Of a stretch of DNA of 60,862 bases, positions 38,623 through 57,908 are shown one piece after another. Positions within the stretch are counted from its first letter, which is position 1. Every line of letters begins with the position of its first letter. The DNA comes from Bacillus phage vB_BspP_Dartukuta. Below the pieces are notes generated by a model. The model saw only the letters and a program-made list of their open reading frames with translations. It was not told where the DNA came from and searched no databases. The stretch lies in the sequence record MW749009.1; one strand, written 5' to 3'. The translations under genes were made by a program, and so were the position numbers.

Positions 38623-40514
38623 TGGGTATCGCACCGGATAGTATTCTTGGGGTGGCGGTTGATACCGTCACTAGCAAGATCAATGACCTAGATACGCTTG
38701 GCAGCAAGTACAGTTCGCTATTACAGAAGTCACTTGTAGATATTGGCAAAATAAAGGTTGCTGATGTTGAGGCCCCGCTAAGGCTTCAGCCGCCAGAAGC
38801 AGCACCGCCACCTGTGACACTTGGACCAATACCTGATTACAATCCACCGCCTTTAGCGCTGCCAGCTATGCCGGATGGGTTTAGTATTGATGACCTGTTA
38901 TCCGGCCTTGATATTGGCGACATGGATGCCATGCCGGACGCGCCCGTAGCAATACCGATAAACATACCTGACGCGCCTGATATGGCTGCAATTCCAGCAC
39001 CAGATCGACCAACAATAGATACGAATGTCGAAATACCGGACGCACCAAACATTGTCATGCCGGAAATGGAGGCGCTTGAGCAGATCAATATCCCTGATTT
39101 TGTTTTCCCTGAGCTACCTACGTTTGATGCTACGCCTCCAGACGCCAGCACTATAAGGGTGCCTGATGTTTTTATTAACTGGTCTGAGCCGGTCTATGCG
39201 TCAGAGGTTTTAGACGATCTAACGGCTAAAGTTAAAACCATGATGGCTGGCGGTACTGGCTTGCCGGCTGCCATCGAAGATGCTTTGTTCTCAAGGGCAC
39301 GCGAGCGTGACAGCGCAGAAACAACAAGGTCAGTTCAAGAAGCGGTTGATACATGGGCTGGACGTAACTTTTCTATGCCACCAGGCATGCTAGTGAAAGC
39401 TACCGATGTAGCGAGAGAGCAAGGACGACTCAAGGCAGCTGAACTTAACCGTGACATTCTGGTTGAGGCCGCTAAGTGGGAGATTGAGAGCATCCGCTTT
39501 GCCGTTGAGCAAGGTATGGCGCTTGAGCAGCTAACCCAGAACCTATACAACAACATGGCTAATCGCTTGTTTGAAGTGGCTAAGTTCCAAGCTGAAGCGC
39601 AGATCCGCGTATTCGATGCGCAGATAAGTCTTTTCAATGCTCAAAACGAAGCATTCAAAACGCTTGGCGATGTGTATCGGGTTAAGCTGGACGGTGCTAT
39701 AGCCAAACTTACGGCCTACAAAACTGCTATCGAAGGTCAAGTTGCGCTTGGCCAGATCAACCAGCAGCGTGTTGATGTATTTAAAGCCAAGCTCGATGCT
39801 GTTCAGTCAAACGTAGAAGTCTACAAGGCCATGATGCAAGGCGCTCAGGTTCGGGCAGATACCATTAAAACCCAATTTGATGCGTACAAGGCAGACGTTC
39901 AGGCATTCGCAGAACAGATCAACGCAGAGAAGGTTAAGTTTGACGCCTATGAAAGTCGGATCAAGGGCGAGCAGGCCAAGGCCGGAGTCTATGACTCACA
40001 GGCACGCGCTTACGCCTCAACTATTCAGGGGCTTGCAAGCAAGGCAGACGTTAAAGTAAAAGGCGCACAGCTCAAGATGGAGGCCGCGCGAGTTAAGGTT
40101 TCCAAGTTTCTTGCTGATGTGGATGCCTACAAGGCGCAGCTTCAAGCAAACCTTGGTGAGGTGCAATATGTGACAACAGCTTTCACCGCTCAAGTGGACG
40201 CATGGAAGTCACAAGCAAGCGCCAACGTAGCTGATGCTGAAATGCAAAGCCGCTTTGCCGATATGAATACGCGCACCGCAATTGCTTACTCTGAAATGCA
40301 GATGAGCGAGTACACGGCCAAGATGACGAACGCGGTACAGCAGGCGCAGATTGCACTTGATGCTGCAAAGGCTTTAGGTCAGTACACCGCTCAACTGGCA
40401 GCAGGCGCAATGTCTGCAGCTCATGTGTCGGCAAGTATCAGCGGCAGTGGATCTGCAAGCTCAAGCGACTCAAGAAGCACTAGCACTTCGACGAGCCATA
40501 ACTACAGCTATTAA
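38619..40514 (+). CDS. Coiled-coil-rich virion protein (631 aa), possible internal/ejection protein
   Basis: Pro-rich N-terminal third, long Ala/Gln/Lys-rich helical C-terminal half, Ser-rich tail. Confidence 0.5.
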   Translation: MMGIAPDSILGVAVDTVTSKINDLDTLGSKYSSLLQKSLVDIGKIKVADVEAPLRLQPPEAAPPPVTLGPIPDYNPPPLALPAMPDGFSIDDLLSGLDIGDMDAMPDAPVAIPINIPDAPDMAAIPAPDRPTIDTNVEIPDAPNIVMPEMEALEQINIPDFVFPELPTFDATPPDASTIRVPDVFINWSEPVYASEVLDDLTAKVKTMMAGGTGLPAAIEDALFSRARERDSAETTRSVQEAVDTWAGRNFSMPPGMLVKATDVAREQGRLKAAELNRDILVEAAKWEIESIRFAVEQGMALEQLTQNLYNNMANRLFEVAKFQAEAQIRVFDAQISLFNAQNEAFKTLGDVYRVKLDGAIAKLTAYKTAIEGQVALGQINQQRVDVFKAKLDAVQSNVEVYKAMMQGAQVRADTIKTQFDAYKADVQAFAEQINAEKVKFDAYESRIKGEQAKAGVYDSQARAYASTIQGLASKADVKVKGAQLKMEAARVKVSKFLADVDAYKAQLQANLGEVQYVTTAFTAQVDAWKSQASANVADAEMQSRFADMNTRTAIAYSEMQMSEYTAKMTNAVQQAQIALDAAKALGQYTAQLAAGAMSAAHVSASISGSGSASSSDSRSTSTSTSHNYSY

Positions 40515-40534
40515 CCAGCAATAATCCTGCAGGT

Positions 40535-40558
40535 TAACACCCTGTAGGATTCGCAACC
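40535..40558 (+). promoter_or_regulatory. Conserved late motif, copy 3 (TAACACCCTGTAGGATTCGCAACC)
   Basis: Between the 631-aa and 662-aa genes, followed by an inverted repeat (40564..40603) that overlaps the Shine-Dalgarno of the next gene. Confidence 0.35.
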
Positions 40559-40607
40559 AAGTTCCGTAGCAGACAACATTAAGCGCAACAGCTAATGCTA
40601 CGGAGTC

Positions 40608-42596
40608 ATGGTTATGCAGGGTTTTAAGCCTCGTGATCAGCGAGATAATCAGTCAAAAAAACAATCAAAACAAAAGAAAGCAAATCTTGGCTTTGCGAAT
40701 GGCGGCATGATTCGCGGCCCCGGCACGGGCACGTCTGATGATATTGAAGCCGAGATGCCTGCTGGCTCTTACGTTATGCCTGCTGATTCAACCGAGCAAA
40801 TCGGTGAAGAAGGTTTAGCCAGCATGGGATCGCCAGCTGATGTACGCGTATCTAATGGCGAATACCAGTTACCACCTGAGCAGGTTCACGCTATAGGCGT
40901 GCAAGCACTTGACCAGATGAAGGACGCTACGCATACACCAGTAGCGCAAGGCTTTAACCCTCAAGTCAATCGTGATGGTGAGCAGTTCTTTAATCAGGGC
41001 GGTGTCACGCTTGGTGATGAAGAAGCCAAGCGAAAGGCAGCGCAGATGCAAAACCAGTCACCGATTGCACCGCCGCCTCAATCATCTTCACCAGCAGCAA
41101 GCACTGAACAACTGAATGCCGAAAGAGCCAATAGATTAGGCGCGCAGAAAGAAGCTGACACAGCTATGCGCTCAGAGCAGAGAAAGGCAGGCGCGAGAGC
41201 TATTGAGAACACTAAAAGCAATGTATCAGCAGCGGTTGATTCTATTGGGGGTTTTGTTGGCGATACATATAAGAACGTCCTTAACGCTGCGACAGTTGTA
41301 CCAAGGACAGCTTATGGCATAGCCACTGGAGGGATAGACCCTCACCAGCCTGCTAGGCACCCAGGCGCAGATATTGTTGATGCTAACAAAGCAAAACTAG
41401 CCGAGCAGGCAGCTTTGTCGCAGCAGCGTAACCAGCAGTTTAGCGCCACAATGGGCGGTGCTCAATCACAGATGGATGCAGTATCTGGTTTATTCCCAAA
41501 TCAAAAACCAGCAGCTTCTGGTACGCCAATGCAGGCGCTTGAAGCCAGCCAACCTGTAGCTGAAACTGGCACGCCAATAGCGCAAGAACAGTCAGGCCAA
41601 CAACCAGCAAGCGAGCAGTCTGCAGCACAACAGTCAGTAACAAGCCAAGAGCCATTACAGCCGCAGAACGCTGGCTTTCAGGCTGAGCTAAACAACGTAA
41701 CCAGAGACGGCAATAGCTTCAGCGGTGGAATTGTTCGCCCCGGCTACACGATAAACGGCCAAGCTCAAGGTGGCGTAAACGTCATGCCAGCAGAGCAAAG
41801 CGCACAGAACAAACAGGCTGTTGCAAATCTATTTGAGCGCACGCCAGAGTTCGGCACCGGCACAGCCCCGATACAGCAACAAGCACAAGGCTTTACTCCT
41901 AACGGTGGTGGTGGCCAACGATTCACAGTTGTTGGTGACAACTCACGGCAGGATGCTGATTACAGAAAAGCATTCAATGCCGCAAGCACTGCGCACCGTG
42001 GCGCTCAAAACGGCCAGCTAACAGCAGCGCAGTTAAGGTCAATGGAAGGCTTAACCAAAAACAAATACGGCACGGCAGACGCAAATCAAAGCAACGCAAC
42101 TTCGCGTGCAAACAGTGATAGCACCAACTCGGCAAATATCCTTCAGACAAATATGCGTGAGGCAGGATCAGACCGTAGAGCCTCAGCTACCAACAACCTT
42201 GATAACCGCAGGCTGGATCAAGCCGAAAGACTTTCAGCGCCACAGATTCAGGCGGCAGAAGAAAAGCAGAGTCTCTACAAGCGCTTTAATGAGGCTGAAA
42301 CAGAAGAGCAGAAAAGTGAAATCCTTAACCAAATGAGAATACTCAACGGCTCTGGTGGCTCACAAGAAAACCTAAGAAACAACTTCATGCAGCTTGGCGG
42401 CGGGCAAGAAATGGTAGACGGCGTACTGCGTAATGTTCCTCAGCGACTCATTGATCTTAGAACAGGTCAAGAAGTTCTAGGGGGCCAGCAAGAGCAAAAG
42501 CCAGACACGAAACGCTTTGAGAAAAACAAGATTTACCGCGACAAGAGCGGGACTCGATTCATGTGGGATGGTGAAAAGGCTGTTCCAGTTAACTAA
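40608..42596 (+). CDS. Low-complexity Gln/Ala/Gly/Asn-rich virion protein (662 aa)
   Basis: ORF track; compositionally biased; directly upstream of the giant gene. Confidence 0.5.
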   Translation: MVMQGFKPRDQRDNQSKKQSKQKKANLGFANGGMIRGPGTGTSDDIEAEMPAGSYVMPADSTEQIGEEGLASMGSPADVRVSNGEYQLPPEQVHAIGVQALDQMKDATHTPVAQGFNPQVNRDGEQFFNQGGVTLGDEEAKRKAAQMQNQSPIAPPPQSSSPAASTEQLNAERANRLGAQKEADTAMRSEQRKAGARAIENTKSNVSAAVDSIGGFVGDTYKNVLNAATVVPRTAYGIATGGIDPHQPARHPGADIVDANKAKLAEQAALSQQRNQQFSATMGGAQSQMDAVSGLFPNQKPAASGTPMQALEASQPVAETGTPIAQEQSGQQPASEQSAAQQSVTSQEPLQPQNAGFQAELNNVTRDGNSFSGGIVRPGYTINGQAQGGVNVMPAEQSAQNKQAVANLFERTPEFGTGTAPIQQQAQGFTPNGGGGQRFTVVGDNSRQDADYRKAFNAASTAHRGAQNGQLTAAQLRSMEGLTKNKYGTADANQSNATSRANSDSTNSANILQTNMREAGSDRRASATNNLDNRRLDQAERLSAPQIQAAEEKQSLYKRFNEAETEEQKSEILNQMRILNGSGGSQENLRNNFMQLGGGQEMVDGVLRNVPQRLIDLRTGQEVLGGQQEQKPDTKRFEKNKIYRDKSGTRFMWDGEKAVPVN

Positions 42597-42616
42597 TTGC
42601 CGATAGGTATTAAATA

Positions 42617-45600
42617 ATGAGCTTTGAAGTTGATTTAGACAGCGCTGTTCTTGAGGGTGATTATTATGGAGATGATACTAGGGTCAAGCCTGAGAGCAGC
42701 AGTTCAGGCTTTAGCCCTGAAGCAGGTCCCGCAAAGCAGCCAGCTCCCTTTAGCGTTGACCTAGAAAGCGCTGAGCTAGACGAAAAAGCCAACCAGGGCT
42801 TTATTGGAACATTAGCTGACGGTGCAAAATCGGCAGGTAGAGCCATTAGCTCTACTTACAATACTTATACTGGCGATGGTCAAGCAGTTGTTGATAACGC
42901 CAAGGCTCAAGAACTGGCCAATGAAGATAAAAGCCAAGACATTAAAAACTTCCAGTCTGACTGGGCGGCAAATACGGGCGCAGGTACTGATGACGAAGTA
43001 GGCTTATGGGGTGCTATCAAAGGCACTGGAAAGGCAATTATTGATAACCCTCGTGGTGCCGCCCTTTCAGTAGTTGAGCAATTCCCTAATTCAGTTCCAG
43101 CACTGGCCGCAGGCTGGGCAGGCGCTAAAGGCGGCGCAATGGCAGGGGGCGCAGTCGGCTCGGCTTTTGGTGGTGTCGGCGCTGGGCCTGGCGCTTTAAT
43201 TGGTGGCGCCGCGGGGTTTGTTGGCGGCATGTTCCTCGGTAATACGTTGACCGAAACGGGCCATAAGGCGCAAGAGTACGCTGCCGATGGTGAGTTCACG
43301 CCAGATGAGCAGTCAGCAGCTATTACCGAGGGCGCGAAAAAAGCCGGTGTTATTACAGCCGTAGATGCGCTTACCTTTGCTGTCGGTGGCAAGGTTTCTG
43401 GATACTATCGGAAAACAGCAGAGTCAACAGTTGAGGCAGCTACTCGCAAAACACTGCTTGACGCTGGTGTTGATATTAGCGATACAGCAGCGCTTACTGC
43501 GGCAAGAGGTAGCCCACAAATTGCAAGCCAAGTTGTTGAAGCGCAGAAAAATGCGGCAAAGATTGCAGACAATCTACGCAAGCGCGCAGGCGAGGCAGGC
43601 GCGCTACTTACAATGGAAACAGTCGGCGAAGGCTTAGGTGAATACTTAGGCGAACTGGCAGCGACTGGACAAGCAAGCGTAGCAGAGGCCGTGCTAGAGA
43701 GCTTCTTGTCGCTAGGTCAGTCTGGCGTTCAGTCGATGTTTAACTTTGCCAAGGCGCGAGAGCGTTCGCTCACTGACCAAGAATGGATTGATGCGTCAAA
43801 CGGTATTGCGCCAGAAGGTATGGCACCAGAGCAAATGCCGGTTGCTGATGGTATATGGGATAAGCCAACTCCAGAAGCCAAGATCGACATGGGGCAGATG
43901 CAGGGTGGCGGCGTAACACCGACACCTGTATTTGACCCGCAAGACATTGATCGCAACCTTGCACCGACACCATCGCAGCAAATGGGAATTAACCCTGATG
44001 CTGGCCCACTTTCTGCTGCTGCAGCGCAGTCAGTTGATAGTGGCTTGTTTACAGGCGGGTTTACCCCACAAGCCGGAATTAACCAATCGGCACTTGAGCG
44101 CGAGGGCGTAACGCCGCCGCCAGTATTAGATACTGACCAGATTGACCGCAACTTAGGAAGTATTGATCCATTAACAGGTGAGTACATGCCTGCACCTGAG
44201 CAGTTAGGTCAGTCGAGTCAAGCGGGAGGCGCCGGTAATTATGAGTATGACCAATGGGGCAACCTAAGCAGCGTTGATGGCCGCACAGTAGATGGTTACG
44301 GTCAAAACCAACCACGCCTTGGTTTTAATAGTAAAGCCGAGCGCAGCACCGCGCCGTTATATGAAGTTGGGCCTGATGGTGTGGCGCGTCCATCTTCAGG
44401 AGAGGCGGCGCGGAGTAGAAAAGAACGTATTGACCTATCATCGCTGAAAGGTAGACAGCAAACCCAAGCGCAAAAACAGCCTGCTGCTATGCCAGAGCAG
44501 CGTAGTCCTGAACAGCAAGCGCAATCTATCTGGGATTCAATGAATACCTTTGAGCGTAACGCTGCAGCAGCAAATGTTCTTGGTATGCGCGGCGTACCGG
44601 CTAAGAATGCAGCCACAAAAGCATGGGATAAGCTAAGCTCTGAACAGCAGGCCAAGCTCGTAACTGGACTTGAGAGCCAGCAAGGGAAACGCTGGATAGA
44701 CCCTAATCAGAAAGTGACTGACCAAACTGGCCCTGTGCTACAAAACCGCGACCGCACAAGCCAAGACTCAATCAATCAGATGCGAAGCATCTCAAACAAT
44801 CCAGACTACAGCAGGTTAAAAACATCAGGCTTCTTGTCTGACGGTGCGCCTGTTGTTGTTGATGAGAATATTCAAATACCAGCGTCACAGATGGGCGTTA
44901 CTGATACTGCTTCTGCAGGAAACGAGCGCTTTAACGTGCAGTACGCAGTAGTTGAAGCCGACCAGTTAATGACCAGTAACAGCATTGACGGTACCACTAA
45001 CGCTGAATACCAGACAGGGGCTGCAGGTAAGGCTAGAGCAATTGCAGGTAATGGACGAATCACTGGCTTGCAATCAGCATGGGCTAAAGGCAACGCCAGC
45101 CAATACAAAGCCGATATGGCAGCCGATAGAATGCACGGCATTGACCCGGCCGTTATTGAAGGCATGCGCAATCCTGTTTTAGTCCGCTTATTGCCGCAGG
45201 ATCAGGTCACTGACAATATTGGCGACCTAAGCAACAGAGACGAGAAAGGCAGACTTTCGCCGGTCGAGCAAGCCAAAACAGATATGGGCCGCATTGACCT
45301 TGATAGCCTAAAGTTTACTGCTGAAGGTGCTATCGGTGGCGAAGCGATCCACCAGTTCCGCATGGCTCAACCTGCAGCTGAGCGCGTGAGTGAGGCAGAG
45401 GCACGGAAGCGACTGACTTCTGCTGTCTTCCAAAAGGCATACGGAAACGATCAGCTTACAGAAATCCAGTCTGGTGAAAGTGACGATGCCAAATCAATCT
45501 TATCAGCACTGGCACAAGCAGCCCCAAGCATGTCACGTCTTGAAGGAGCTGGTGAGTTTGATATTCGCCCACTAATCACGCAGGCAGGCATTGCGGCTGT

Positions 45601-48600
45601 AAACGCAGCGCGTAGAGGCACTAAACTTGCTGATTATGTTCAGCAGTCAGAAATGGGTATTGATCCAATGGTATACCCAATTCTGGAAATGATGCTGAAC
45701 GAGAATGGCAATATCCGTAGTAGCAAATACATCGGCGAACAGCTAACCAATATGGCAAAGTTGGCTTATGATGAAGCCAACTCACCTAGCTCAGATATGT
45801 TTGGCGAAAAACCCAAGCGTACAGCTGAGCAGGTTATTCAAGACGCGCTTACTGGAGTACAAGGTTATGGCCAAATCAATGACGGAAGAGGGCAAGAAAG
45901 TCTGGGGCAGCGAGGGCGGTCAGAACCTGATGCGCAAATGGTTGAAGGGCCAGAAGGCGGACGAGAGCGACCAGCAGACACTAGACAAACTGCACCAACT
46001 CAACCAGAAGCAGAGCAAGAACAACCCGCAGCAGTAGAAAGCAATGCGCCTGAAACATGGCGCAGTAACTACATTCAAGCCGCCAAGATTGCACGCGAAA
46101 AAGGCATTAATCCTAAGCAGCATAAAAAACTCGCTGACTTGGTTGAAGCTATTGATGCGTCAAACACTAAACCTGAAGCTCAAACACAGCTAACAGCACA
46201 ACAGAAGCAGGCTTCAGGCAGTGTAGATGGTGCAAAAGTCCATCTTAACAACAGCATTGACCTAACCAGCGCATTAGCTGCAATCGCACGCGGCGCACAA
46301 TTAAGCACCGAGCCAAACGGTGACGTTATTCTTAGTGGCACCAAGATAATTACGCTTCCAAAGCCGCCAACTTCTATTGATGAAGTTATTGCCCCGTTAG
46401 CCACAGCCTTACTAGAACAAATGCGAGCAGATGGCGTTTCTATGCCTGGCAACCCAGCGGACATGACGCGGGATCAGTTTGCTATTGCCTATCACTTTGC
46501 AAACATAATTCCAGAGTTTGAAATCAGCGGAGCAGATATTGGTGGCGTAGTCCAAGGATCAAGCCGTGGCTTAACAGTAGACTCAGACAAGCTATACGAC
46601 AAGATCATCGAGCAAGCCAAAGAGCAGGCTAAACCAGCCTTGGAGCTTAACCAGCAAACCGAAGAATCCTTAGCTAAAGATGCCAAACGATTAGAGCAGC
46701 TGCAGAAAGAAGAAGCTGCGCAGAAAGTCGCGCAGAAAGCTGCAGAAAGGAAACAGCGTGAGCGTGACGCAGACAAGGCCAGAGCGGACGAAGTGGTTGA
46801 TGACTTCCAGTTGGGGCAGTCTGCAGAAGAAGTAATGTCTGGCATGGGTGATATTTTTGCGACTGAGAGCAAGCCAGCAGATAAAGGCATTGCGTCTCAA
46901 GCCGATGACAGCCATGTCACAGTTGTTGATAACCAATACAACCCAAACCCTACAGAAGCGCAGAAGCAGGCTGGCAACTACAAGAAGGCTCACGTTAAAT
47001 TCCAAGGCCTTGATATCACAGTAGAGAATCCAGTCGGATCAGTGCGCAGTGGCGTAGATCCTGACGGCAATACTTGGTCAAATACTATAAAGCATGATTA
47101 CGGATACATTAAGCGCACTAAGGGCGCTGACGGCGACCATGTTGATGTGTTTATAGGTAAAGATACCGAAAGCGATAAGGTATTTGTAATTGATCAGCCG
47201 CACAAAAACGGTAAGTTCGACGAACACAAAATCATGCTCGGCTTTAAAGACCAGACGCAGGCCGTAGAAGCGTACAAAGGCAACTATCAGAAAGACTGGA
47301 AAGTTGGCTCTGTCACTGAAATGACTGTGGGCGAATTTAAGCAGTGGCTTAGCAATGGTGATACCACCAAACCGGTTGAGCCAGTCGCGAAGCCAGCAGC
47401 GCAAACAAAGCCAAGCCAAGCCATTGAGGACTTTGGTGAGAGGCTGGAAGGCGCACGCAAGGATTACGCCAGCAAACTATCTGACGCTAAAGAGGTAGAC
47501 ATTGCGACTGAGCCACTATCAAAGTCTTGGCCAGAGCCGAATTATCAGAAGTTGATTGACGGAGGAATGCCGCTAGAAACAGCAAGTATTGTTCGTGCTA
47601 TTCGTGATGAGATTCCAGTGAAGCCGCGCGCATCATGGCGACTGAAAGGATGGGTGCGACAAGTAAGCGAAATGCGTGATTTAGCCTTGAATTTGATGGG
47701 GGAAACAGCTACAGCTAAAGTGATTGTAGAGCAGATAAAATCTAATAAATCTTTATCAGACATAGTGAATCGTGCAGACCTGTACTCGGCAGTTGGGCAC
47801 GATAAAAGCCTAAAAGATATTAGTTTAAAACAAAGCTCTTACTCGTTGATTGATGGTGTTAAATACTCGCCACCGAAAGAGCTCTGGACGGTTGAAAGGC
47901 CGATTAAAAGCAGCGTAATAAGCAACATGCCCAGACGTATTGCGACAGCTGAAACAAGAGAGCAAGCGATTGCCAAATTCAAAAATGCGTATGCAACATT
48001 GGACGAAAGCAAACGTGTCAAGAACAAAGCAGTTGAGTTTGGGGTTTATACAGACAGAACCACAAAAGATGTTTTCATTGGCCGGAAGGTTGGCAAAAGT
48101 ATTGCTCGCGTAAAAACTGGATTCGAAACTGCTAAAGATGCAATTGCACACCTAAAGGAAAACTATGCTGCTCTTGAAGAGCGGTTTAACAAGATGAAGG
48201 ATACGCCCGATCATCGTAAGGCTGAAAACTCACCTAGAGTTGGCGTTGATCACCGAAATGGCGCGGATGTAACACCGGAGCAGTTCTCTGATACGTTCGG
48301 GTTCAGAGGGGTGCAGTTCGGTAACTATGTAGAGCAAGGACGTAGGCAGCAGGATCTAAATGAAGCCTATGATGCGCTTATGGACATGGCTGGCGTGTTA
48401 GGTATTCCAGCAAAATCTCTATCTTTAAATGGTGAGCTTGGACTAGCGTTTGGTGCTCGTGGTAAGGGTGGAAAACAAGCAGCTAAAGCGCATTATGAGC
48501 CAGATCAAATTGTTATTAACTTAACTAAGAAAAATGGCGCAGGCAGCCTTGCTCACGAATGGTGGCATGCGCTTGATAACTATTTTGGCCGCGAGCGTGG

Positions 48601-51600
48601 CGGTAAAAGCAATGAAATGTATGCCTCAGACAATCGAGCTCACGCGACAGTCAGACCTGAAATGGCAAAGGCTTATCGTGATATTGCAAGCGCAGTAAGC
48701 CGAACCAAGCTGAAGTTTCGTTCAGACAAGCTCGATAGAATGCGCACAAAACCATACTGGGGTACCGGTATAGAAATGACTGCGCGATCTTTCGAGAGCT
48801 ACGTTATTGAGAAGCTGCGTGATAGCGAGTTATCTAATGATTATTTAGCCAATATTGTTGGCGAAGATTACTGGAATGCTGCGGCAGCACTGGGCATTGA
48901 AAAGGATGGTACTTATCCGTATCCAGAGGCGGCTGAGATACCGGAAATCCGCGCTGCGTATGATAACTTTTTTAACACTCTAGAAACAAAGGAGGGTGAA
49001 GATGGCAATGTCCTGCTTTTTAGCTTTGCAGGCAAGACTGCTCGTGGCGCTGATCTTATGGCGCTGGATCAGGCTCAGTTGCGCATTGCTTCTGGTGACA
49101 ACGCCGAGACTGTACGCCAAGAAACAGGTTGGCACCGTGGCGATGATGGAAAGTGGCGCTTTGAGATCAGCGATGATCAAGCCAAGCTGCGCGTAGCTGG
49201 TAAAAATGCAGGTGAGCTTATTGACTCAGCCGCGCTTGACGCGATCACCGGTGGCCGCAAGTTCCCAGTGACTTCTGACCTGATCGACCACGCTCAACTA
49301 TTTGTTGCCTATCCTAAACTAAGCAATATCAAAGTAGAGAAAATGCCAGAAGGCGGTACCGCTCTAGCGCGATTAAAGCGCAGAGCTACAGGCTTCACTA
49401 TCCAGTTGCGCGATAACTTGCCACGCGAGAAAGTGGCGTCTGCAATCTTGCATGAGCTACAGCACGGCATTCAGGTTTACGAAGGCTTTGCCGTAGGCGG
49501 CTCTAAGAATATGGTCTTCAGTGATCTTGATATGAGTGGAGCCAAGGCGTATCGCGCACTTGCCGGTGAAGTGGAAGCGAGAAATACCCAAACACGCCAC
49601 TCTATGACGCCAGCTTTGCGCCGCAACATTGCGCCTGAGCTGACTCAGGACACGCCAAGTGCAGACGTGATCGTCACGTTCAACGGTAAGGACATTACCA
49701 ACAAGGCAATTCCTAATAACGTCAATAACGCGCCGATAACTGATGCCTCGCTGGTGCGAGCGTTCGATGTACAGTTCCCTCGGTTAACTAAAGCTGTGCG
49801 CACCATGCTTGCCCGTGGTAATAAGGGCGAGCGTGGTGGTGTGGTCGTGATTGATAGCGCTGATCCATTGATGATTGCCCGTGCGTTCGCCAAGAAAACA
49901 GGCAAGCCAATATCGCAGTCGGTGCAAATGTTCTCAGACGCTGGTGTGATCAATGGCTTCTTTGATCCTAAGTCTGGCCTTACCTTCCTTGTTGGTCCGA
50001 ACTTGAATCCAGTCACCGGCACAGCTGTTTTGCTTCACGAAATGATCCACGGTCAACAGCGCCAGAAGATCGACAAGGCCGCACTTGCCATGCTGATGAA
50101 TCGCGGCAAAGAGAAAAACGCAGAAACACGAGCGTTCCTTGATCGCGTAGCTGCTCGCATGGATGATGCTGGCGAAACAGCGAACGCACAAGAGGCAGGC
50201 GCTTACATTGTTGAGCAGGCCGTAATGGAAGGTAAGAGCGCTGGTTATGGCACTGCAGACAGCCGATTCCTTTCATGGGTAGACCAACATATTGGTAAGA
50301 CGGTAGGTGACTTCTTACGCTCGTTCATCGGTAATTTGCGCAGCTGGGCGCTGCGTAACGGCTTGCCTATTGGTCCGATTACTGTGGACGATCTTGTTAG
50401 CTACGCAATGGCAGGTATGAAGCAGGCTGGTCGCGGTAATGTTGATGGCGGTGCCGCTGGGTTCAGTCGTGACGCAACAGCTAGCCTAGAGGATGCTCTA
50501 GCGAAACTTGATGCGCTCGGCCTGAAGCATCGGATCAGCGAGCGCAACGATGTTATTACTGTGAGCAAGATTGAGGTGCCCGAGGGCGCTAGAGGTCAGG
50601 GCGCTGGATCATCGGCAATGCAAGCCCTGATCGACTACGCGGACGCCACTGGTAAGCACATTGCTTTAACACCAACAGCCGATTTTGGTGGTAACAAAGC
50701 AAGGCTTAAGGAGTTCTATCAGCGCTTTGGATTCAAGGAAAATAAGGGTAAAAACAAAGTTTACGAAGTCTCAGAAGGAATGGTTCGCGAAAATCCGAAT
50801 GGGCGCACCCTATATTCAAAGGGCATCACTGAAGATCTAGCAGAAGGCCAGCGGCAGTTTGCACAAACAGAAAATGCTTACGGTGGTCGTGCAGCCTACG
50901 ATCAGGCAAAATCAGAGGGCAAGACCAAGCTGAACTATCAGCAGTGGGTGCAGGTACGTACGCCTGCTTTTAAAAACTGGTTTGGGGATTGGGAAAATGA
51001 ATCAGAAAGAGTTGAGCGAAAAACAGAAAGAGTTCAGGAGGTGGCTGGACGAAACACTGCCAAACCCAACGCCAGAGCAACTCAGCCAGCTGGACGAGCG
51101 TGGCGACTGGATCCAGAAACCGGAGAGCCAAGAATCTTCTATCACGGAACCAAAGACAGCTTCACCGTCTTCGACCTAGATCACCAGAACAGAAAGGATC
51201 ACGGCTGGTTAGGTACAGGTATTTACACTGGAAGCGATAAACTTTTAGCAGAGTCATACGCAAGGCTGAAAGATGGCTCAGGTGAGCCGCGAGTTATGGA
51301 GTTTTTTGCAAATGTAAGGAACCCATATAAGGCTACTATAGAAGATAAGCAGCGGGGAAGATTTGCTGATAGAGCTTACGCCGACAGAGTTACAGAAAAG
51401 TTAAAAGAAGCTGGATACGACGGTGTAGTACTTCCGTTCGCAGATGGCAGTGTCGAGCTGGTGGCGTTTGATAAGCCGCAGATCAAATCAGCCACCGGCA
51501 ACGTCGGTACGTTTAGTGCAGACAATGATGATATACGATTTAGCTTTGCCGGCCAAAGGTCAGGAACAGCCGACCACTACTCATTAGGGTCAGCGCAGCA

Positions 51601-54600
51601 GCGCATTGAATCCGGCGAAAATGCAGAAGCGGTGCGTCAAGACACGGGCTGGCACAAAGGCATTGATGGCAAGTGGCGCTACGAAATTAGCGACCATGAC
51701 GCAAAACTACGCAAGCCATTTCCATCTAAGGGCCAGCTTTGGGGTGGAGTTTACGAAAGTGTCAACCAGTCCAAGGTGCAAAGAGGCGAGGGATACGGTA
51801 TCAGCCTAGGCGAAATACTGGATCACCCTGCACTATTTGCGGCATACCCGCATCTTGCAAGCCTATCTGTAAGCACGCAAAAGGGTAGCGGTGCGTCATA
51901 CGAGTCCGGCAGCCCTTCCAGTCCGGCATCTATCAGTATCGGCACCGATGTGCCAATGTATGACGTGCCAAGCAAGCTGCTGCACGAAATCCAGCACGGC
52001 ATTCAGAATATTGAAGGGTTTGCGCGTGGCGGCACTTTAGAAACGGGCGCTGGTTTGAGCAACCTTCATGCTCTACTTGAAAAGCAGAAGAATGAATTTG
52101 AAAACGAGCACGGGTTCAACGACTGGATTTTTGAACTAATACTGGAGCAGCCAAAACGACATAAAGCCTTGATGGACGAGGGCGCAAAAGATGGGTATTC
52201 ACTCCGTTCGCTATATCAGTCTTTTGCTAGTGAGAAGCTATCAGAAGAAGATCGCGGATATTTCGTATCGAGGATGCTGGGTTATGAAGATAAACTAAGA
52301 AAAGTCGCGCTTTCAAAGCACATAACTCCGAGCGAGTTCTATCAACGATTAGCAGGCGAAGTTGAAGCCCGCAACACCCAGATCCGCCATAAGATGACGG
52401 CTGAACAGCGCAAAAGCACACCGCCAAGCGCAACGCAAGATGTATCCGATGCCGATGCCATTGTCATGTTCAACGGAACGGAAATGCACAACGCGCCCGC
52501 ACCGGCAAACACCGGCACAAGCGACATTCGCTTCAGCCGCTCAGCTAACCCAGCTTCAATAAGCGCGGCACCAAACGGAATGGCAGCTTGGGATAGCCCT
52601 TCGGCATCGAAGTTCGATGACTTTGTTTACAAGATGCAAGATAAGCACGTTGATACAAAGCGCGTGATTGAAGCTATCCGCGACACAGGTAAGGCAATCA
52701 GCGATGACCTAGACGTATACCTGCAAGAAACATTGTTTCATGGGCGAGCAGCTAAGCGCACGCAAGACTTCTTAAACAAGGAAGTAAACCCGCTTATTGA
52801 GTACATGCAAAGCGCCAAGGTTGAAATGAGCGATCTTGAAGAGTTCTTGCACGCACGACACGCACAGGAAGCTAACGCGCTGATTGCTAAGCGCGATCCT
52901 AATATGCCTGATGGTGGGTCAGGTATGACAAACGCTGAGGCCGCAAAATACCTTAATTCGCTAAATGGCGTTCGACGTAAGCAATTAGAGAACGCTGCAA
53001 AGTTTGTCGATAAGATTATCGGTGGAACACGAGAAACCATTGTTAGCTATGGCCTTGAAAGCCAAGAAACGGTTGATGGCTGGACAGCCGGATTCAAGCA
53101 TTACATTCCGCTGCAGCGTGAAGATAAAGACGGCCAGATGGGTATTGGCCAAGGCTTCAGCGTTAAAGGAAAAGAGACTAAAGGACGCACAGGCTCAACA
53201 CGTAAGGTTGTTGATATTCTGGCCAACGTGATGATGCAGCGTGAGCGCGCCATTGTTCGTGGTGAGAAAAACCGAGTAGCAGTTGCATTGCTAGGACTCG
53301 CTAAAGATAACCCGCTACCTGAGTTCTGGCAGGTTGATAAAGTTCCGACAACACGGGTGCTTGATAAAGTAACAGGCTTGGTACGCAACCAAGCGGACCC
53401 TATGTACAAGAGTAGAGACAACGCTATTGTAGCTAAGGTAAACGGCCAAGAGCATGCGATCCTGATGAACGAAGACGACCCACGCGCAATGCGCATGGCC
53501 GAGGCTTTAAAGAATCTTGATGCGGCACATCTGGAAGGGTTGTTAGGTGCTACAGCCACTGCGACACGATACTTTGCAGCAGTGAATACGCAGTACAACC
53601 CGATATTTGGCGTAACAAACTTTGTTCGCGATATTCAAGAAGCCATGCTTCACTTACAAAGCACGCCACTAGCAGGGCAGCAGTCGCGCTTGTTCAAAAA
53701 TACATTCACCGCAGTTGGCGCGGTAATGAAAGCAGAGCGCGACGGCAGAAAAGGAAATAATGCAACAGGGAAGTGGGGCGTTTTATGGGAAGACTTTCAG
53801 AATACCGGTGGGCAGACTGGCTTCAGGGATCAGTTCAGCAATAGCGCAGATCGCGGCAAAGAGATCCAGCGAGCTTTAACACCGGATGGCTGGGCGGAAA
53901 CAGGCTTAGGCAAGTTCTTTACCGCCAATGGAGCACTTAAAGCACCGCTCGAAGTAGTGCGCAAAAAAGCGGCATGGCTGTTTGATCTGCTATCTGATTA
54001 CAACACGGCAATGGAAAACGGCGTGCGATTATCTGCTTATGAGACTGGGATTAACGCTGGCATGAGCAAAGAGCAGGCGGCAGCACTGGCCAAGGGATTG
54101 ACCGTTAACTTTAATCGAAAAGGCCAAGTTACCCAGCAAGTCGGCGCGCTCTATGCGTTCTTCAATGCGAGCGTGCAAGGTACTGCTCGATTAGGTCAGT
54201 CGCTGTTTGATATGGATGCTGGCAAGCCTAAAACGCTACGCCTATCGTCTCTAGGGAAGAAAATCGTATCAGGCGGCGTTATGCTGGGCGCGTCTCAGGC
54301 TGTACTGCTAGCGATGGCTGGCTTTGATGATGAAGAGCCGCCTGAGTTTATCCGTGAGCGCAACATCATCATACCGACGGGCGGAAAAACCTATATCAGC
54401 ATACCAATGCCGCTTGGCTATCACGTTATCGCAAACCTTGGCCGTATACCGATGGAGTTTGTTCTTGGTGGTGGAAAAGATGGCGCTAAGCACCTGTTTA
54501 ACCTAATGGACGTAATGGCAGACATTTACAATCCAATCGGTAACTCAGGCTTATCCATGCAAACAATCGCGCCTACTGTGCTCGATCCGCTTGCTGGCCT

Positions 54601-55228
54601 TGCAGAGAATAAAGACTTCTCAGGTCGTGCGATTGCAAAAGAAAGCTTTAACCGCCAGACGCCAGGTCATGCGCTCGCAAGAGATACGGCATCACTGCCG
54701 GCAACATGGCTGGCTGAATTAGTCAACTATGCAACAGGCGGAACTGAGTTTACCCGTGGCGAGTTATCACCAACACCTGATCAAATTGATTACCTTGTTG
54801 GTCAGCTAACCGGTGGTGTAGGCCGAGAAACCACTAAGTTTATGAAGTCGATTCAGGCGACTGCCACCGGTGATGATTTGCCTTGGCACAACATTCCGTT
54901 AGTCGGCAGGTTTTTTGGTGACGCAGACAGCGACGGAGCCAAGCAGTCAGCCTTTTACAACAGCATGGACAAGGTGCGTAAGCATGCTGAGGAAGTGAAA
55001 GGTTTGCGCGCCTCAGGAAGATCAGGCGAGGCAGTCGAGTACGCCAACAAGCACCCTCATGCCAAGCTTCATCTAGCAGCCAGAGCAGCAGAAAAGCAAG
55101 TGAAGGATATGCGCGATCGTAAGCGTGATCTTGAGCAGGCAGGCGCGCCACGGGAAGAAATACGCGCACTAGAGAAGCGGATGGTTGAGCGCATGGAGCA
55201 ATTTGTTGAGCTGGCCAAGGCGCAGTAA
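42617..55228 (+). CDS. Giant multidomain (polyvalent-type) protein, 4203 aa
   Basis: Single uninterrupted ORF. By eye: Gly-rich hydrophobic segment (aa ~145-215), pyrophosphatase-like DYGYIKRTKGADGDHVDVFIG (~aa 1505), HExxH sites at aa ~1980, 2279, 2474 and 3123, a duplicated ~200-aa module (GWHRGDDGKWRFEISD / GWHKGIDGKWRYEISD), GNAT-like RGQGAGS...FYQRFGF (~aa 2660), ART-like YHGT...GIYTG...VELVAF (~aa 2840-2950), hydrophobic C-terminal region. Confidence 0.7.
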   Translation: MSFEVDLDSAVLEGDYYGDDTRVKPESSSSGFSPEAGPAKQPAPFSVDLESAELDEKANQGFIGTLADGAKSAGRAISSTYNTYTGDGQAVVDNAKAQELANEDKSQDIKNFQSDWAANTGAGTDDEVGLWGAIKGTGKAIIDNPRGAALSVVEQFPNSVPALAAGWAGAKGGAMAGGAVGSAFGGVGAGPGALIGGAAGFVGGMFLGNTLTETGHKAQEYAADGEFTPDEQSAAITEGAKKAGVITAVDALTFAVGGKVSGYYRKTAESTVEAATRKTLLDAGVDISDTAALTAARGSPQIASQVVEAQKNAAKIADNLRKRAGEAGALLTMETVGEGLGEYLGELAATGQASVAEAVLESFLSLGQSGVQSMFNFAKARERSLTDQEWIDASNGIAPEGMAPEQMPVADGIWDKPTPEAKIDMGQMQGGGVTPTPVFDPQDIDRNLAPTPSQQMGINPDAGPLSAAAAQSVDSGLFTGGFTPQAGINQSALEREGVTPPPVLDTDQIDRNLGSIDPLTGEYMPAPEQLGQSSQAGGAGNYEYDQWGNLSSVDGRTVDGYGQNQPRLGFNSKAERSTAPLYEVGPDGVARPSSGEAARSRKERIDLSSLKGRQQTQAQKQPAAMPEQRSPEQQAQSIWDSMNTFERNAAAANVLGMRGVPAKNAATKAWDKLSSEQQAKLVTGLESQQGKRWIDPNQKVTDQTGPVLQNRDRTSQDSINQMRSISNNPDYSRLKTSGFLSDGAPVVVDENIQIPASQMGVTDTASAGNERFNVQYAVVEADQLMTSNSIDGTTNAEYQTGAAGKARAIAGNGRITGLQSAWAKGNASQYKADMAADRMHGIDPAVIEGMRNPVLVRLLPQDQVTDNIGDLSNRDEKGRLSPVEQAKTDMGRIDLDSLKFTAEGAIGGEAIHQFRMAQPAAERVSEAEARKRLTSAVFQKAYGNDQLTEIQSGESDDAKSILSALAQAAPSMSRLEGAGEFDIRPLITQAGIAAVNAARRGTKLADYVQQSEMGIDPMVYPILEMMLNENGNIRSSKYIGEQLTNMAKLAYDEANSPSSDMFGEKPKRTAEQVIQDALTGVQGYGQINDGRGQESLGQRGRSEPDAQMVEGPEGGRERPADTRQTAPTQPEAEQEQPAAVESNAPETWRSNYIQAAKIAREKGINPKQHKKLADLVEAIDASNTKPEAQTQLTAQQKQASGSVDGAKVHLNNSIDLTSALAAIARGAQLSTEPNGDVILSGTKIITLPKPPTSIDEVIAPLATALLEQMRADGVSMPGNPADMTRDQFAIAYHFANIIPEFEISGADIGGVVQGSSRGLTVDSDKLYDKIIEQAKEQAKPALELNQQTEESLAKDAKRLEQLQKEEAAQKVAQKAAERKQRERDADKARADEVVDDFQLGQSAEEVMSGMGDIFATESKPADKGIASQADDSHVTVVDNQYNPNPTEAQKQAGNYKKAHVKFQGLDITVENPVGSVRSGVDPDGNTWSNTIKHDYGYIKRTKGADGDHVDVFIGKDTESDKVFVIDQPHKNGKFDEHKIMLGFKDQTQAVEAYKGNYQKDWKVGSVTEMTVGEFKQWLSNGDTTKPVEPVAKPAAQTKPSQAIEDFGERLEGARKDYASKLSDAKEVDIATEPLSKSWPEPNYQKLIDGGMPLETASIVRAIRDEIPVKPRASWRLKGWVRQVSEMRDLALNLMGETATAKVIVEQIKSNKSLSDIVNRADLYSAVGHDKSLKDISLKQSSYSLIDGVKYSPPKELWTVERPIKSSVISNMPRRIATAETREQAIAKFKNAYATLDESKRVKNKAVEFGVYTDRTTKDVFIGRKVGKSIARVKTGFETAKDAIAHLKENYAALEERFNKMKDTPDHRKAENSPRVGVDHRNGADVTPEQFSDTFGFRGVQFGNYVEQGRRQQDLNEAYDALMDMAGVLGIPAKSLSLNGELGLAFGARGKGGKQAAKAHYEPDQIVINLTKKNGAGSLAHEWWHALDNYFGRERGGKSNEMYASDNRAHATVRPEMAKAYRDIASAVSRTKLKFRSDKLDRMRTKPYWGTGIEMTARSFESYVIEKLRDSELSNDYLANIVGEDYWNAAAALGIEKDGTYPYPEAAEIPEIRAAYDNFFNTLETKEGEDGNVLLFSFAGKTARGADLMALDQAQLRIASGDNAETVRQETGWHRGDDGKWRFEISDDQAKLRVAGKNAGELIDSAALDAITGGRKFPVTSDLIDHAQLFVAYPKLSNIKVEKMPEGGTALARLKRRATGFTIQLRDNLPREKVASAILHELQHGIQVYEGFAVGGSKNMVFSDLDMSGAKAYRALAGEVEARNTQTRHSMTPALRRNIAPELTQDTPSADVIVTFNGKDITNKAIPNNVNNAPITDASLVRAFDVQFPRLTKAVRTMLARGNKGERGGVVVIDSADPLMIARAFAKKTGKPISQSVQMFSDAGVINGFFDPKSGLTFLVGPNLNPVTGTAVLLHEMIHGQQRQKIDKAALAMLMNRGKEKNAETRAFLDRVAARMDDAGETANAQEAGAYIVEQAVMEGKSAGYGTADSRFLSWVDQHIGKTVGDFLRSFIGNLRSWALRNGLPIGPITVDDLVSYAMAGMKQAGRGNVDGGAAGFSRDATASLEDALAKLDALGLKHRISERNDVITVSKIEVPEGARGQGAGSSAMQALIDYADATGKHIALTPTADFGGNKARLKEFYQRFGFKENKGKNKVYEVSEGMVRENPNGRTLYSKGITEDLAEGQRQFAQTENAYGGRAAYDQAKSEGKTKLNYQQWVQVRTPAFKNWFGDWENESERVERKTERVQEVAGRNTAKPNARATQPAGRAWRLDPETGEPRIFYHGTKDSFTVFDLDHQNRKDHGWLGTGIYTGSDKLLAESYARLKDGSGEPRVMEFFANVRNPYKATIEDKQRGRFADRAYADRVTEKLKEAGYDGVVLPFADGSVELVAFDKPQIKSATGNVGTFSADNDDIRFSFAGQRSGTADHYSLGSAQQRIESGENAEAVRQDTGWHKGIDGKWRYEISDHDAKLRKPFPSKGQLWGGVYESVNQSKVQRGEGYGISLGEILDHPALFAAYPHLASLSVSTQKGSGASYESGSPSSPASISIGTDVPMYDVPSKLLHEIQHGIQNIEGFARGGTLETGAGLSNLHALLEKQKNEFENEHGFNDWIFELILEQPKRHKALMDEGAKDGYSLRSLYQSFASEKLSEEDRGYFVSRMLGYEDKLRKVALSKHITPSEFYQRLAGEVEARNTQIRHKMTAEQRKSTPPSATQDVSDADAIVMFNGTEMHNAPAPANTGTSDIRFSRSANPASISAAPNGMAAWDSPSASKFDDFVYKMQDKHVDTKRVIEAIRDTGKAISDDLDVYLQETLFHGRAAKRTQDFLNKEVNPLIEYMQSAKVEMSDLEEFLHARHAQEANALIAKRDPNMPDGGSGMTNAEAAKYLNSLNGVRRKQLENAAKFVDKIIGGTRETIVSYGLESQETVDGWTAGFKHYIPLQREDKDGQMGIGQGFSVKGKETKGRTGSTRKVVDILANVMMQRERAIVRGEKNRVAVALLGLAKDNPLPEFWQVDKVPTTRVLDKVTGLVRNQADPMYKSRDNAIVAKVNGQEHAILMNEDDPRAMRMAEALKNLDAAHLEGLLGATATATRYFAAVNTQYNPIFGVTNFVRDIQEAMLHLQSTPLAGQQSRLFKNTFTAVGAVMKAERDGRKGNNATGKWGVLWEDFQNTGGQTGFRDQFSNSADRGKEIQRALTPDGWAETGLGKFFTANGALKAPLEVVRKKAAWLFDLLSDYNTAMENGVRLSAYETGINAGMSKEQAAALAKGLTVNFNRKGQVTQQVGALYAFFNASVQGTARLGQSLFDMDAGKPKTLRLSSLGKKIVSGGVMLGASQAVLLAMAGFDDEEPPEFIRERNIIIPTGGKTYISIPMPLGYHVIANLGRIPMEFVLGGGKDGAKHLFNLMDVMADIYNPIGNSGLSMQTIAPTVLDPLAGLAENKDFSGRAIAKESFNRQTPGHALARDTASLPATWLAELVNYATGGTEFTRGELSPTPDQIDYLVGQLTGGVGRETTKFMKSIQATATGDDLPWHNIPLVGRFFGDADSDGAKQSAFYNSMDKVRKHAEEVKGLRASGRSGEAVEYANKHPHAKLHLAARAAEKQVKDMRDRKRDLEQAGAPREEIRALEKRMVERMEQFVELAKAQ

Positions 55229-55237
55229 CATTTTGAT

Positions 55238-55274
55238 CGCCTCGCCCTCAGCAATGAAGGCGAGGTTTAATGTT
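55238..55274. terminator. Stem-loop terminator between the convergent giant gene and antirepressor
   Basis: CCTCGCC (55240..55246), 12-nt loop, GGCGAGG (55259..55265), then TTTAATGTT. Confidence 0.45.
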
Positions 55275-55301
55275 AAGTTACGCCTGAAAATGCACAGCTG
55301 C

Positions 55302-56174: not shown

Positions 56175-56194
56175 AGTGAGCACCTTTCAGATTT

Positions 56195-56420
56195 GAGAGG
56201 TTCACCACCGAAGCGACCAAGCAAGGGTGGCGAACTGTACGCAGGTTGGTCGACCGGGCGAAAGGACCCCGGCACACCCGAAGGTGTCCCACGCACAGCC
56301 CGCCATAACGCGGGCACAAAAAAACCGCTGATGCGGCGTTGTGCGCCTTTCAAGTTCCGGGCGACCAAACCCGTATCGCTGAATTTGCAGCGACGCGGGA
56401 AAGGTAGCCTGAAAATAGCA
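56195..56420. ncRNA. GC-rich structured non-coding region; candidate regulatory RNA upstream of ant
   Basis: Several short GC stems with 4-nt loops (CCGGG..CCCGG, ACACC-CGAA-GGTGT, GCCCGC-cataac-GCGGGC); only short overlapping ORFs in several frames on both strands; GC visibly higher than the flanks. Strand and family undetermined. Confidence 0.3.
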
Positions 56421-56523
56421 AAGCGTCAAATAGAAAGTGATTTTATGTATTAAGTGGCTTACTTGACTAGAAGTGATGGCGTGCTAACTTAACTAATTCT
56501 TATGTTCAAAGGATGGAATCATC

Positions 56524-56886: not shown

Positions 56887-56998
56887 TGCTTACTGAAGCG
56901 GTTTACTCACTGGCATGGCTCTGTGAGAAATGCTCTGAAAACCTTAGAGTTCAGACTTGAGTTGAGCTCTAAGGCTAAAGCGAACAGCATTTGTTTGC

Positions 56999-57820: not shown

Positions 57821-57908
57821 AGCATTTCTCCTGAAAATTCCTTGTGTTGTTTTATAAGCTGCAAGCAAAAAACCTAATATATCAAAGCATCCGGCAGATT
57901 ACCTTAGT

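Follow-up and report, generated by a model that had tools for sequence, protein, structure and literature searches.

A cysteine-free giant polyvalent protein, and probable ejection protein, encoded at the end of the virion gene block of Bacillus phage vB_BspP_Dartukuta

Polyvalent proteins, in which many unrelated enzymatic and LPD domains share one polypeptide encoded among virion genes, were described in 2017 (Iyer, Burroughs, Anand, de Souza and Aravind 2017, PMC5512222). In that account LPD5 is predicted to be enzymatic, while InPase, DdrB-ParB and LPD38 are given as confined to the phage-type members. In the phages of the F116 group, the giant protein encoded in one fixed slot (F116 p60, H66 gp60) is presented by Hardies et al. 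(2016, PMC4819975) as the counterpart of T7 IVP-D fused to intracellular domains, and H66 gp60 is listed there as a structural protein. The protein gp47 of phage phi24B (2811 residues, with LPD5, LPD1, LPD38 and a metallopeptidase) is reported to be abundant in virions by mass spectrometry and absent from the cryo-electron microscopy map, and it has been proposed to be an ejection protein packed in the capsid; for phage PTXU04, a putative polyvalent protein is reported to be required for infection. The subject of this analysis is the gene at 42617-55228 (+) in a 60,862-nucleotide stretch of Bacillus phage vB_BspP_Dartukuta (record MW749009.1), the whole of which is called the window below. Its product has 4203 residues. 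By sequence and context it is a phage-type polyvalent protein, and it probably serves an F116-group temperate podophage as its large internal virion (ejection) protein as well.

When the whole protein and ten overlapping tiles of it are scanned against Pfam, nine domain hits from eight families lie at or above the cutoff, with E values of 1e-55 to 1e-15 for the family-specific domains, and one additional NCBIfam match (CLCA_X) lies below its family cutoff. At least 11 modules are joined in one polypeptide. By sequence, the Pfam families present are those that were defined from the polyvalent proteins of Iyer et al. 2017 (PMC5512222) or are typical of them: ART-PolyVal, InPase, ddrB-ParB, LPD1, LPD5, LPD23 and LPD38, here together with zincin-like, putative peptidase modules. 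The cassettes follow one another as ddrB-ParB, InPase, LPD5, a CLCA_X-type zincin with LPD1, an LPD23-zincin, a third HExxH module, GNAT, ADP-ribosyltransferase (ART) and a second LPD23-zincin. The features of the protein are as follows, with nucleotide positions in the window, strand and residues (aa).

42617..55228 (+), whole gene: 4203-residue polyvalent protein with zero cysteines (open reading frame, composition)
42782..43807 (+), aa 56-397: conserved N-terminal module (HMMER; not in Pfam)
43109..43252 (+), aa 165-212: Gly/Ala-rich, glycine-zipper-like hydrophobic segment within the N-terminal module (composition, hydropathy)
43970..44044 (+), aa 452-476: linear motif of ~25 residues, SxQMG[IL]xPxxGP[LM]SxAAAxxVDSG, shared with 8P_023 and F116 p59
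44720..45187 (+), aa 702-857: ddrB-like ParB superfamily domain (Pfam)
46877..47417 (+), aa ~1421-1600: InPase cassette (Pfam PF18823 at aa 1447-1578, nucleotides 46955-47350)
47849..48295 (+), aa 1745-1893: LPD5 (Pfam)
48236..48991 (+), aa 1874-2123: CLCA_X-type zincin-like domain, HEWWHALD at aa 1980 (NCBIfam)
aa 2039-2125 (+): LPD1, the C-terminal part of the CLCA_X-type domain (Pfam)
49019..49651 (+), aa 2135-2345: LPD23 and HExxH zincin-like module, copy 1, HELQH at aa 2279, then EVEARN (LPD23 by Pfam at aa 2135-2191)
49769..50452 (+), aa ~2385-2612: third HExxH module, LHEMIHGQQR motif at aa 2474 (conservation among homologues)
50453..50827 (+), aa 2613-2737: GNAT acetyltransferase cassette (Pfam at aa 2642-2710, RGQGAG motif)
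51116..51547 (+), aa 2834-2966: ART-PolyVal ADP-ribosyltransferase (Pfam), then the conserved tail KSATGNxGxF..DIRFS
51539..52516 (+), aa 2975-3300: LPD23 and HExxH zincin-like module, copy 2, HEIQH at aa 3123 (LPD23 by Pfam at aa 2975-3031)
52526..55225 (+), aa 3304-4203: C-terminal chassis, mostly alpha-helical (homologue searches)
54260..54328 (+), aa 3882-3904: single strongly hydrophobic helix in the chassis (hydropathy 1.75)
54332-54904 (+), aa 3906-4096: LPD38 (Pfam, E 5e-38)

An initial annotation, made by eye, had already proposed a polyvalent-type protein at the end of the virion gene block, encoded by a single 12.6-kb open reading frame, with a Gly-rich hydrophobic segment, a pyrophosphatase-like motif, four HExxH sites, a duplicated module of ~200 residues, a GNAT-like motif, an H-Y-E ADP-ribosyltransferase-like segment and a hydrophobic C-terminal region. 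Every module seen in this way is backed by profile searches or by conservation. The type is borne out by the eight Pfam families typical of the Iyer et al. 2017 set at the end of an F116-like virion block, and the location by synteny with F116 and 8P, so that the sequence-level and contextual marks of a phage-type polyvalent protein are both found here. To that list can be added the ddrB-ParB domain, LPD5, the CLCA_X-type zincin with LPD1 (1874-2125), LPD38, the N-terminal module (56-397) and the absence of cysteine.

The peptidase-like modules stand out in number. Four HExxH sites (aa 1980, 2279, 2474 and 3123, exactly where they had been read by eye) compare with 0.06 expected from the His and Glu content, and each falls in a conserved zincin-like module. 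The first belongs to the CLCA_X match (NF041907; E 2.6e-40, profile positions 3-246 of 250), in which the HExxH..D motif takes the form HEWWHALD; because its 138 bits lie under the whole-protein family cutoff of 260, the region is regarded as a domain-level relative of CLCA_X, a zincin-like family described as coming mainly from phages and plasmids, whose seeds include Bbp10 of Bordetella phage BPP-1 (Lenart et al. 2013). The second and fourth sites sit in the duplicated module, both copies of which are headed by LPD23. Residues 2134-2301 of copy 1 and 2979-3144 of copy 2 are 42% identical (E 1e-38) and are accompanied by a 57%-identical tail block, a repeat missed by self-BLAST and revealed by direct pairwise comparison; copy 2 carries an insert of ~85 residues after the HExxH helix. 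Across an alignment of 53 LPD23-zincin homologues, the H, E and H of HExxH are invariant and EVEARN is nearly so, and 16 of these homologues match Pfam DUF6782 (putative metallopeptidase), 3 match M78 and 2 match M91. The AlphaFold2 model of copy 1, with a predicted local distance difference test score above 90, has three strands followed by the active-site helix; a PDB sequence search with the LPD23 profile gave chance matches only. The third site lies in the HEMIH module, for which no Pfam family was matched and whose LHExxHxQQR motif is kept in 14 of the 14 homologues found. Copy 1 and the HEMIH module are common to 8P and F116, at ~63% identity.

As for the other enzymes, the InPase match covers profile positions 1-134 of 135 (184.5 bits, E 1e-55), and the metal-binding signature D-x-D-x-x-D is present as DGDHVDV. 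The ART-PolyVal match has E values of 2e-22 to 4.5e-24 and retains the H-Y-E arrangement in the form of an invariant H2843 (YHGT), the Tyr of GIYTG and E2946 (VELVAF). In the GNAT cassette, which is edged by FSR and YSK junction motifs and contains RGQGAG, the Acetyltransf_1 model is matched in a tile with 25.4 bits against a cutoff of 20.7.

Is a gene of this length real? F116 has the equivalent region as two genes, p59 and p60, and some relatives of the chassis stand in the databases as separate proteins of 880-960 residues, as might be expected if several ordinary genes had been fused here by an error of assembly or annotation. Yet the frame runs through 4203 codons with zero internal stops, from an ATG that lies 20 nucleotides past the stop of the preceding gene, with AGGT upstream. 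The counterpart 8P_023 reaches 5145 residues, and large size is common among the relatives of the N-terminal module: when the first 700 residues were searched exhaustively with HMMER, 311 cluster representatives were obtained at E <=0.001, and among the best 150 of these 311, 91 are longer than 2000 residues and 57 longer than 3000. The open reading frame is also taken as a real gene because an independent 52-kb assembly holds an intact frame of 3900 residues (protein P0235) with the same neighbours in the same order, at 86-97% nucleotide identity. A fusion artefact can hardly be credited. Promoter and terminator scans inside the gene gave results at or below shuffle expectation. A Megablast search of the gene against the phage collection gave no match, and the relatives of the protein were recovered by protein-level searches only.

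The composition of the protein bears on its delivery. At the background of the phage (0.78% cysteine), finding 0 cysteines in 4203 residues has P ~6e-15. The other large proteins of the virion block that lack cysteine have 1460 (28684-33066), 631 and 662 residues, and the remaining phage proteins contain 0.3-4%; the 1460-residue protein may also be co-ejected. Avoidance extends to the relatives, since in the best 150 of the 311 only 69 cysteines occur in 359,271 residues (0.019%) and 73 of the 91 giants have none. Among the known ejected proteins, T7 gp15 and gp16 and N4 gp50, gp51 and gp52 have zero cysteines, and the other N4 and T7 proteins have normal levels. By this analogy, the absence of cysteine would be consistent with unfolded passage through the tail channel and the periplasm, and ejected phage proteins might be recognised cheaply, from sequence alone, by their near-total lack of this residue.

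The position of the gene bears on it as well. An F116-like temperate podophage or prophage makes up the window, complete or nearly so. An integrase, RecE/RecT-type recombination genes, a CI-type repressor and replication genes come first; terminase, portal, major capsid and tail genes follow, then the giant gene, and after it an anti-repressor, the lysis genes and a transposase. The giant gene is the last of the co-oriented virion block. The virion proteins are closest to those of Pseudomonas phage 8P (64% for an 868-residue protein), with the F116 group at 44%. In 8P the slot holds 8P_023, annotated "structural protein", and in F116 it holds p59 and p60. Two cysteine-free proteins are encoded directly upstream.

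38619..42596 (+), proteins of 631 residues (38619-40514) and 662 residues (40608-42596), both cysteine-free (BLAST, position)

The 631-residue protein is in the position of 8P_021 and F116 p57. In the 662-residue protein, the first ~130 residues match 8P_022 and F116 p58 by BLAST, and the remainder is of low complexity and rich in Q, N and S. Both are candidate co-ejected internal virion proteins.

The resemblance to the F116 group thus includes the slot in syntenic phages with a neighbouring virion protein 44-64% identical, the LPD23-zincin-HEMIH cassette (63%), the presence of ART-PolyVal in F116 p60 and the near absence of cysteine. Scaffold and cargo differ. F116 and 8P have another N-terminus and another C-terminal chassis (the annotated PLxRFG domain of H66), with no detectable homology to those of the window protein, and 8P carries DNA methylases and an SNF2-type helicase in place of the ParB, InPase, LPD5 and GNAT cassettes. 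The NCBIfam model PLxRFG, whose name is given to H66 gp60, has no match in the giant protein. The string IPLVGRFFG (aa 4094-4102, ~54896-54922, 110 residues from the C-terminus) was considered as a PLxRFG/N4 link and set aside as too loose and without profile support. N4 gp50 has LPGRFRGY at residue 3408, 93 residues from its end, and PLSRFG in F116 and 8P lies 680 residues from theirs; this may be chance.

If the cargo comes from the polyvalent repertoire, what carries it? The scaffold would consist of the N-terminal module and the C-terminal chassis, with changeable enzymes as the payload between them. The N-terminal module (~56-397) is found at or near the N-terminus in most of the best 150 of the 311 relatives, and it was not found in 8P_023, F116 p59 or the protein H0150 of the Shiga-toxin (Stx) phage VT2-Sakai. 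In its residues 165-212, Gly makes up 18% and Ala 21%, hydropathy reaches its peaks at 184-212 and the glycine zipper is weakly matched; this segment is a candidate membrane-active element. The only N-terminal piece in common with 8P_023 (at ~405-428) and F116 p59 (at ~417-440) is the SxQMG motif, by which the protein may dock onto a conserved partner in the virion. At the other end, the chassis has hundreds of homologues at 45-66% identity, including more than 100 metagenomic proteins; these usually carry cassettes upstream, ART-PolyVal or others, and some stand alone as genes of their own. In cultured phages it occurs in Stx phages, in podophages of Vibrio, Ralstonia and Burkholderia, in Bacillus phage Page and in the record "Methanosarcina virus MetMV". 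The last (MK170447.1) is the best match from a cultured virus, at 42% over 96%, and is an odd one for a module otherwise found in bacterial podophages. Residues 3882-3904 of the chassis are a candidate membrane-spanning element, and together with residues 165-212 they are the only strongly hydrophobic segments of the protein.

Among the giant proteins of Stx phages, H0150 of VT2-Sakai, annotated as similar to 933W L0134, was compared directly. The C-terminal chassis, ~870 residues, is homologous to it (32% over 845-904 residues, E 2e-116 to 3e-115 by tblastn and blastp), and so is the LPD5-zincin-LPD1 block, which is 37% identical over 582 aligned positions (E 9e-94) and has HEWWH where H0150 has HEWFH. 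Both are encoded by the last virion-block gene of a short-tailed temperate phage, and H0150 has 2 cysteines in 2806 residues. By sequence, then, the window protein is a member of the group of LPD38-ending giant proteins of the H0150 type. It differs in being 1400 residues longer, with ddrB-ParB, InPase, two LPD23-zincins, the HEMIH module, GNAT and ART in addition, and in having another N-terminal module, its own type being undetected in H0150. The paper on phi24B gp47 gives this protein the same listed domains as H0150-type proteins; the alignments made here are to H0150.

Packaging and ejection, already suggested in the initial annotation, are supported, by analogy, by the virion data for phi24B gp47, by the structural record of H66 gp60 and by the cysteine-free composition. 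A further hint comes from the portal protein of Pa193 (PDB 9b41), to the C-terminus of which the same InPase module is fused: its residues 529-765 are without density, which fits a flexible domain inside the head, and a like point is made for the BcepF1 portal by Iyer et al. 2017 (PMC5512222).

How would such a protein work? A few copies would be packed in the capsid and, on infection, would pass out by way of the portal and the tail channel. They would be mostly unfolded on the way, and this would account for the strict lack of cysteine. At the two ends, the hydrophobic elements may help to build or anchor a conduit across the envelope, and the enzymatic cassettes would enter the cytoplasm with the DNA. 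There they might act on host defence or physiology by hydrolysis of pyrophosphate or nucleotides, acetylation and ADP-ribosylation, and the zincins in the chain may split it into independent pieces. These payload roles are taken from Iyer et al. 2017 (PMC5512222): InPase would remove pyrophosphate or a nucleotide-like signal, GNAT and ART would modify host proteins or nucleic acids, and zincins would cut the chain or attack host or envelope proteins.

Some of the same features could also be read otherwise. With hydrophobic elements at both ends and four zincin-like modules, and with no lysozyme or transglycosylase domain found by Pfam in the whole protein or the tiles, the protein might be mainly a conduit that breaches the envelope, its zincins attacking peptidoglycan cross-links or envelope proteins with no processing of the chain, and its other enzymes being minor; the authors of the phi24B study propose the same for the metallopeptidase of gp47. 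This is possible, if doubtful, because the substrates of the InPase, GNAT, ART and ParB-like domains (pyrophosphate or nucleotides, acetyl-CoA, NAD+) are cytoplasmic, and because whole cassettes are exchanged between relatives that are ~90% identical, a pattern typical of effectors in an arms race and not of a fixed device for penetration. It is also partly compatible with the interpretation as an ejection protein that delivers its enzymes.

Several results weigh against that interpretation. About 1000 residues (398-700 and 858-1340) are without a domain assignment, the GNAT assignment is borderline, and both the catalytic activity of the cassettes and the cleavage of the chain are putative. 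For the chassis, no likeness in sequence or fold to T7 gp16, or to the C-terminus of either N4 gp50 or F116 p60, was detectable: with hhalign, against single-sequence templates and thus with limited sensitivity, its profile obtains a probability of 0.4% with T7 gp16, 0.15% with the N4 gp50 C-terminus and 2% with the F116 p60 C-terminus. A PDB sequence search with the chassis profile gave chance matches only, and a fold comparison of the window protein with the solved T7 gp16 shows no similarity. In view of these negative comparisons, membership in the gp16/IVP-D family is not claimed, and the ejection role rests on position, composition and the phi24B data.

The initial annotation had also pointed to N4-type giant virion proteins. 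At the level of homology no likeness to the N4 virion RNA polymerase, or to T7 gp16, is detectable; what remains is a similarity of kind. Like T7 gp16 (IVP-D) and N4 gp50, the window protein is large, helical, free of cysteine and encoded at the end of a podovirus virion block, and N4 gp50 likewise combines a delivery part with an intracellular enzyme. Those two proteins leave the head, where they are packaged, ahead of the DNA or together with it, as the window protein probably does too; the window protein has neither a lytic transglycosylase nor an RNA polymerase domain. A single-subunit RNA polymerase domain had no match in Pfam, NCBIfam or PDB, and the identification as a virion RNA polymerase was rejected on this account. 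P1 DarB is a giant protein delivered from the capsid, with an anti-defence role; the match to PHROG 10089 ("DarB-like antirestriction") covers only the InPase region. No DNA methyltransferase or helicase domain was matched by Pfam in the whole protein or the ten tiles (8P_023 has both), and the DarB-like label was dropped for their lack. The PHROG labels "DarB-like antirestriction", "endolysin" and "minor head protein" all stem from the shared InPase region and were rejected.

The payload is where close relatives part. P0235, the closest full-length relative (~90% identical), compares with the giant protein as follows.

aa 1-1420: 89% nucleotide identity
aa 1421-1600: no identity; InPase here, an unrelated cassette of ~160 residues there, between identical flanks
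aa 1601-2736: 97.5% nucleotide identity
aa 2737-3301: no identity; a different ART in P0235, from which the second LPD23-zincin is absent
aa 3302-4203: 86% nucleotide identity

A further relative, P0236 (3854 residues), has a RadC-JAB domain instead. The block of ~89% identity to the P0235 phage (L006 8923-21710 against 41560-55235) reaches ~1 kb into the gene directly upstream, and the virion genes farther upstream are only 68-79% (~70%) identical. From the swaps and from this higher identity, the giant gene is a mosaic in which whole cassettes have been exchanged. It passes from phage to phage more readily than most of the genes around it, and the gene, or parts of it, has been exchanged recently.

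A related fragment lies in a chromosomal, non-phage context. In a gammaproteobacterial metagenome-assembled genome (GCA_012719655.1, JAAXZZ010000170.1 8623-10551), a 631-residue frame aligns with window positions 49025-51214. It is 97.6% identical in nucleotides across the 1429 nucleotides of the LPD23-zincin-HEMIH cassette (49025-50453), omits the GNAT cassette exactly (50454-50827) and resumes at 84% and 78% identity. Its neighbours are a large Big_9/cadherin adhesin, a 127-residue MuF_C fragment and fatty-acid metabolism genes. Does this point to a protein that is never delivered with the DNA, made late or in the lysogen and acting in the producing cell, for instance against defences, to exclude superinfection or as a weapon of the polymorphic-toxin type? 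The place of so similar a fragment beside a MuF_C fragment would suit such a role, and ART and zincin domains occur in polymorphic toxins as well. However, the frame ends inside LPD23 and inside ART, both truncated, and it looks like a decayed remnant, one that hints at the host lineage. The giant gene, moreover, is the last of a co-oriented virion operon, the comparable Stx-phage protein and H66 gp60 are virion proteins, and the avoidance of cysteine matches that of known ejected proteins. Action in the producing cell is therefore very unlikely.

The borders of the cassettes carry a signature of their own. The pattern [FY]-S-[RKF]-[ASGDNKT] occurs 5 times in the giant protein against 1.2 expected, at aa 2135, 2616, 2733, 2975 and 3306 (~49019, 50462, 50813, 51539 and 52532), and all five sites fall on independently defined borders: the start of LPD23 copy 1, both ends of GNAT, the junction of ART and LPD23 copy 2, and the start of the chassis. 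The catalytic residues of ART are less conserved than the fuller form of the motif, KSAxGNxGxF..DIRFS. This form stands before the chassis in 25 of 66 distant homologues and is 8.7-fold enriched in 112 large relatives, with at least 21 unrelated sequences downstream. The motif may act as a linker, as a joint for recombination or as a site of cleavage. A bolder proposal, speculative and unlikely as a whole, is that of a self-dismantling, cysteine-free ejection polyprotein. The junction peptide GNxGxF..D-I-R-F-S-[R/F], with FSR and YSK as weaker forms, would at every cassette border be both a recombination joint and a site of zincin cleavage, so that InPase, GNAT and ART would be freed after ejection; delivery would fall to a scaffold with two ends, the conserved N-terminal glycine-zipper module and the LPD38 chassis, of a type not described before and not related to T7 gp16.

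How much of this is new? All of the recognisable domains have been described, as have the overall design and the genomic slot, and the kind has been known since 2017. The suggestion that the gene might be a new effector architecture therefore stands in part: the permutation of the cassettes is new and, like their number, specific to this gene, but all of the cassettes are known and P0235 differs by two or three of them. In comparison with the polyvalent proteins of the 2017 set, the exact order and set of cassettes occur in none of the relatives examined, four HExxH modules are present of which none matches the Pfam MPTase-PolyVal model, and the N-terminal and HEMIH modules are without a Pfam family. 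No mention of the family-wide avoidance of cysteine, the N-terminal module, the junction motif or the sharp swaps between ~90%-identical relatives was found in the parts of the literature at hand, in which no search was aimed at them.

Temperate podophages, Shiga-toxin phages among them, commonly encode giant polyvalent proteins, and almost no experimental tests of these exist. With about eleven modules and four zincin-like sites, the present protein is an unusually rich example, and the close relatives that differ by cassettes make it a natural system in which to ask which of the host defences each cassette counters, whether cleavage of the chain follows delivery and which elements are the minimum for delivery.

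Other parts of the window deserve a brief mention. The region after the giant gene is variable, a slot for moron or defence genes. The P0235 phage (L006 21884-23853) has an AAA_15/AAA_21 ATPase of 464 residues and a 190-residue gene there, ahead of the anti-repressor; in the same slot of the window (55229-57900), other small open reading frames lie past the anti-repressor, at 56524-56886 (+) and 56999-57868 (-). In the early region, a tRNA-Arg(TCT) is encoded at 9883-9959 (-). The gene at 5914-7518 (-) encodes a RecE-like exonuclease whose C-terminal ~40-60 residues have matches in PHROG families of RecBCD nuclease inhibitors, and it may be a fusion. At the right end, just past the lysis genes, lies the transposase gene (59445-60542, -).

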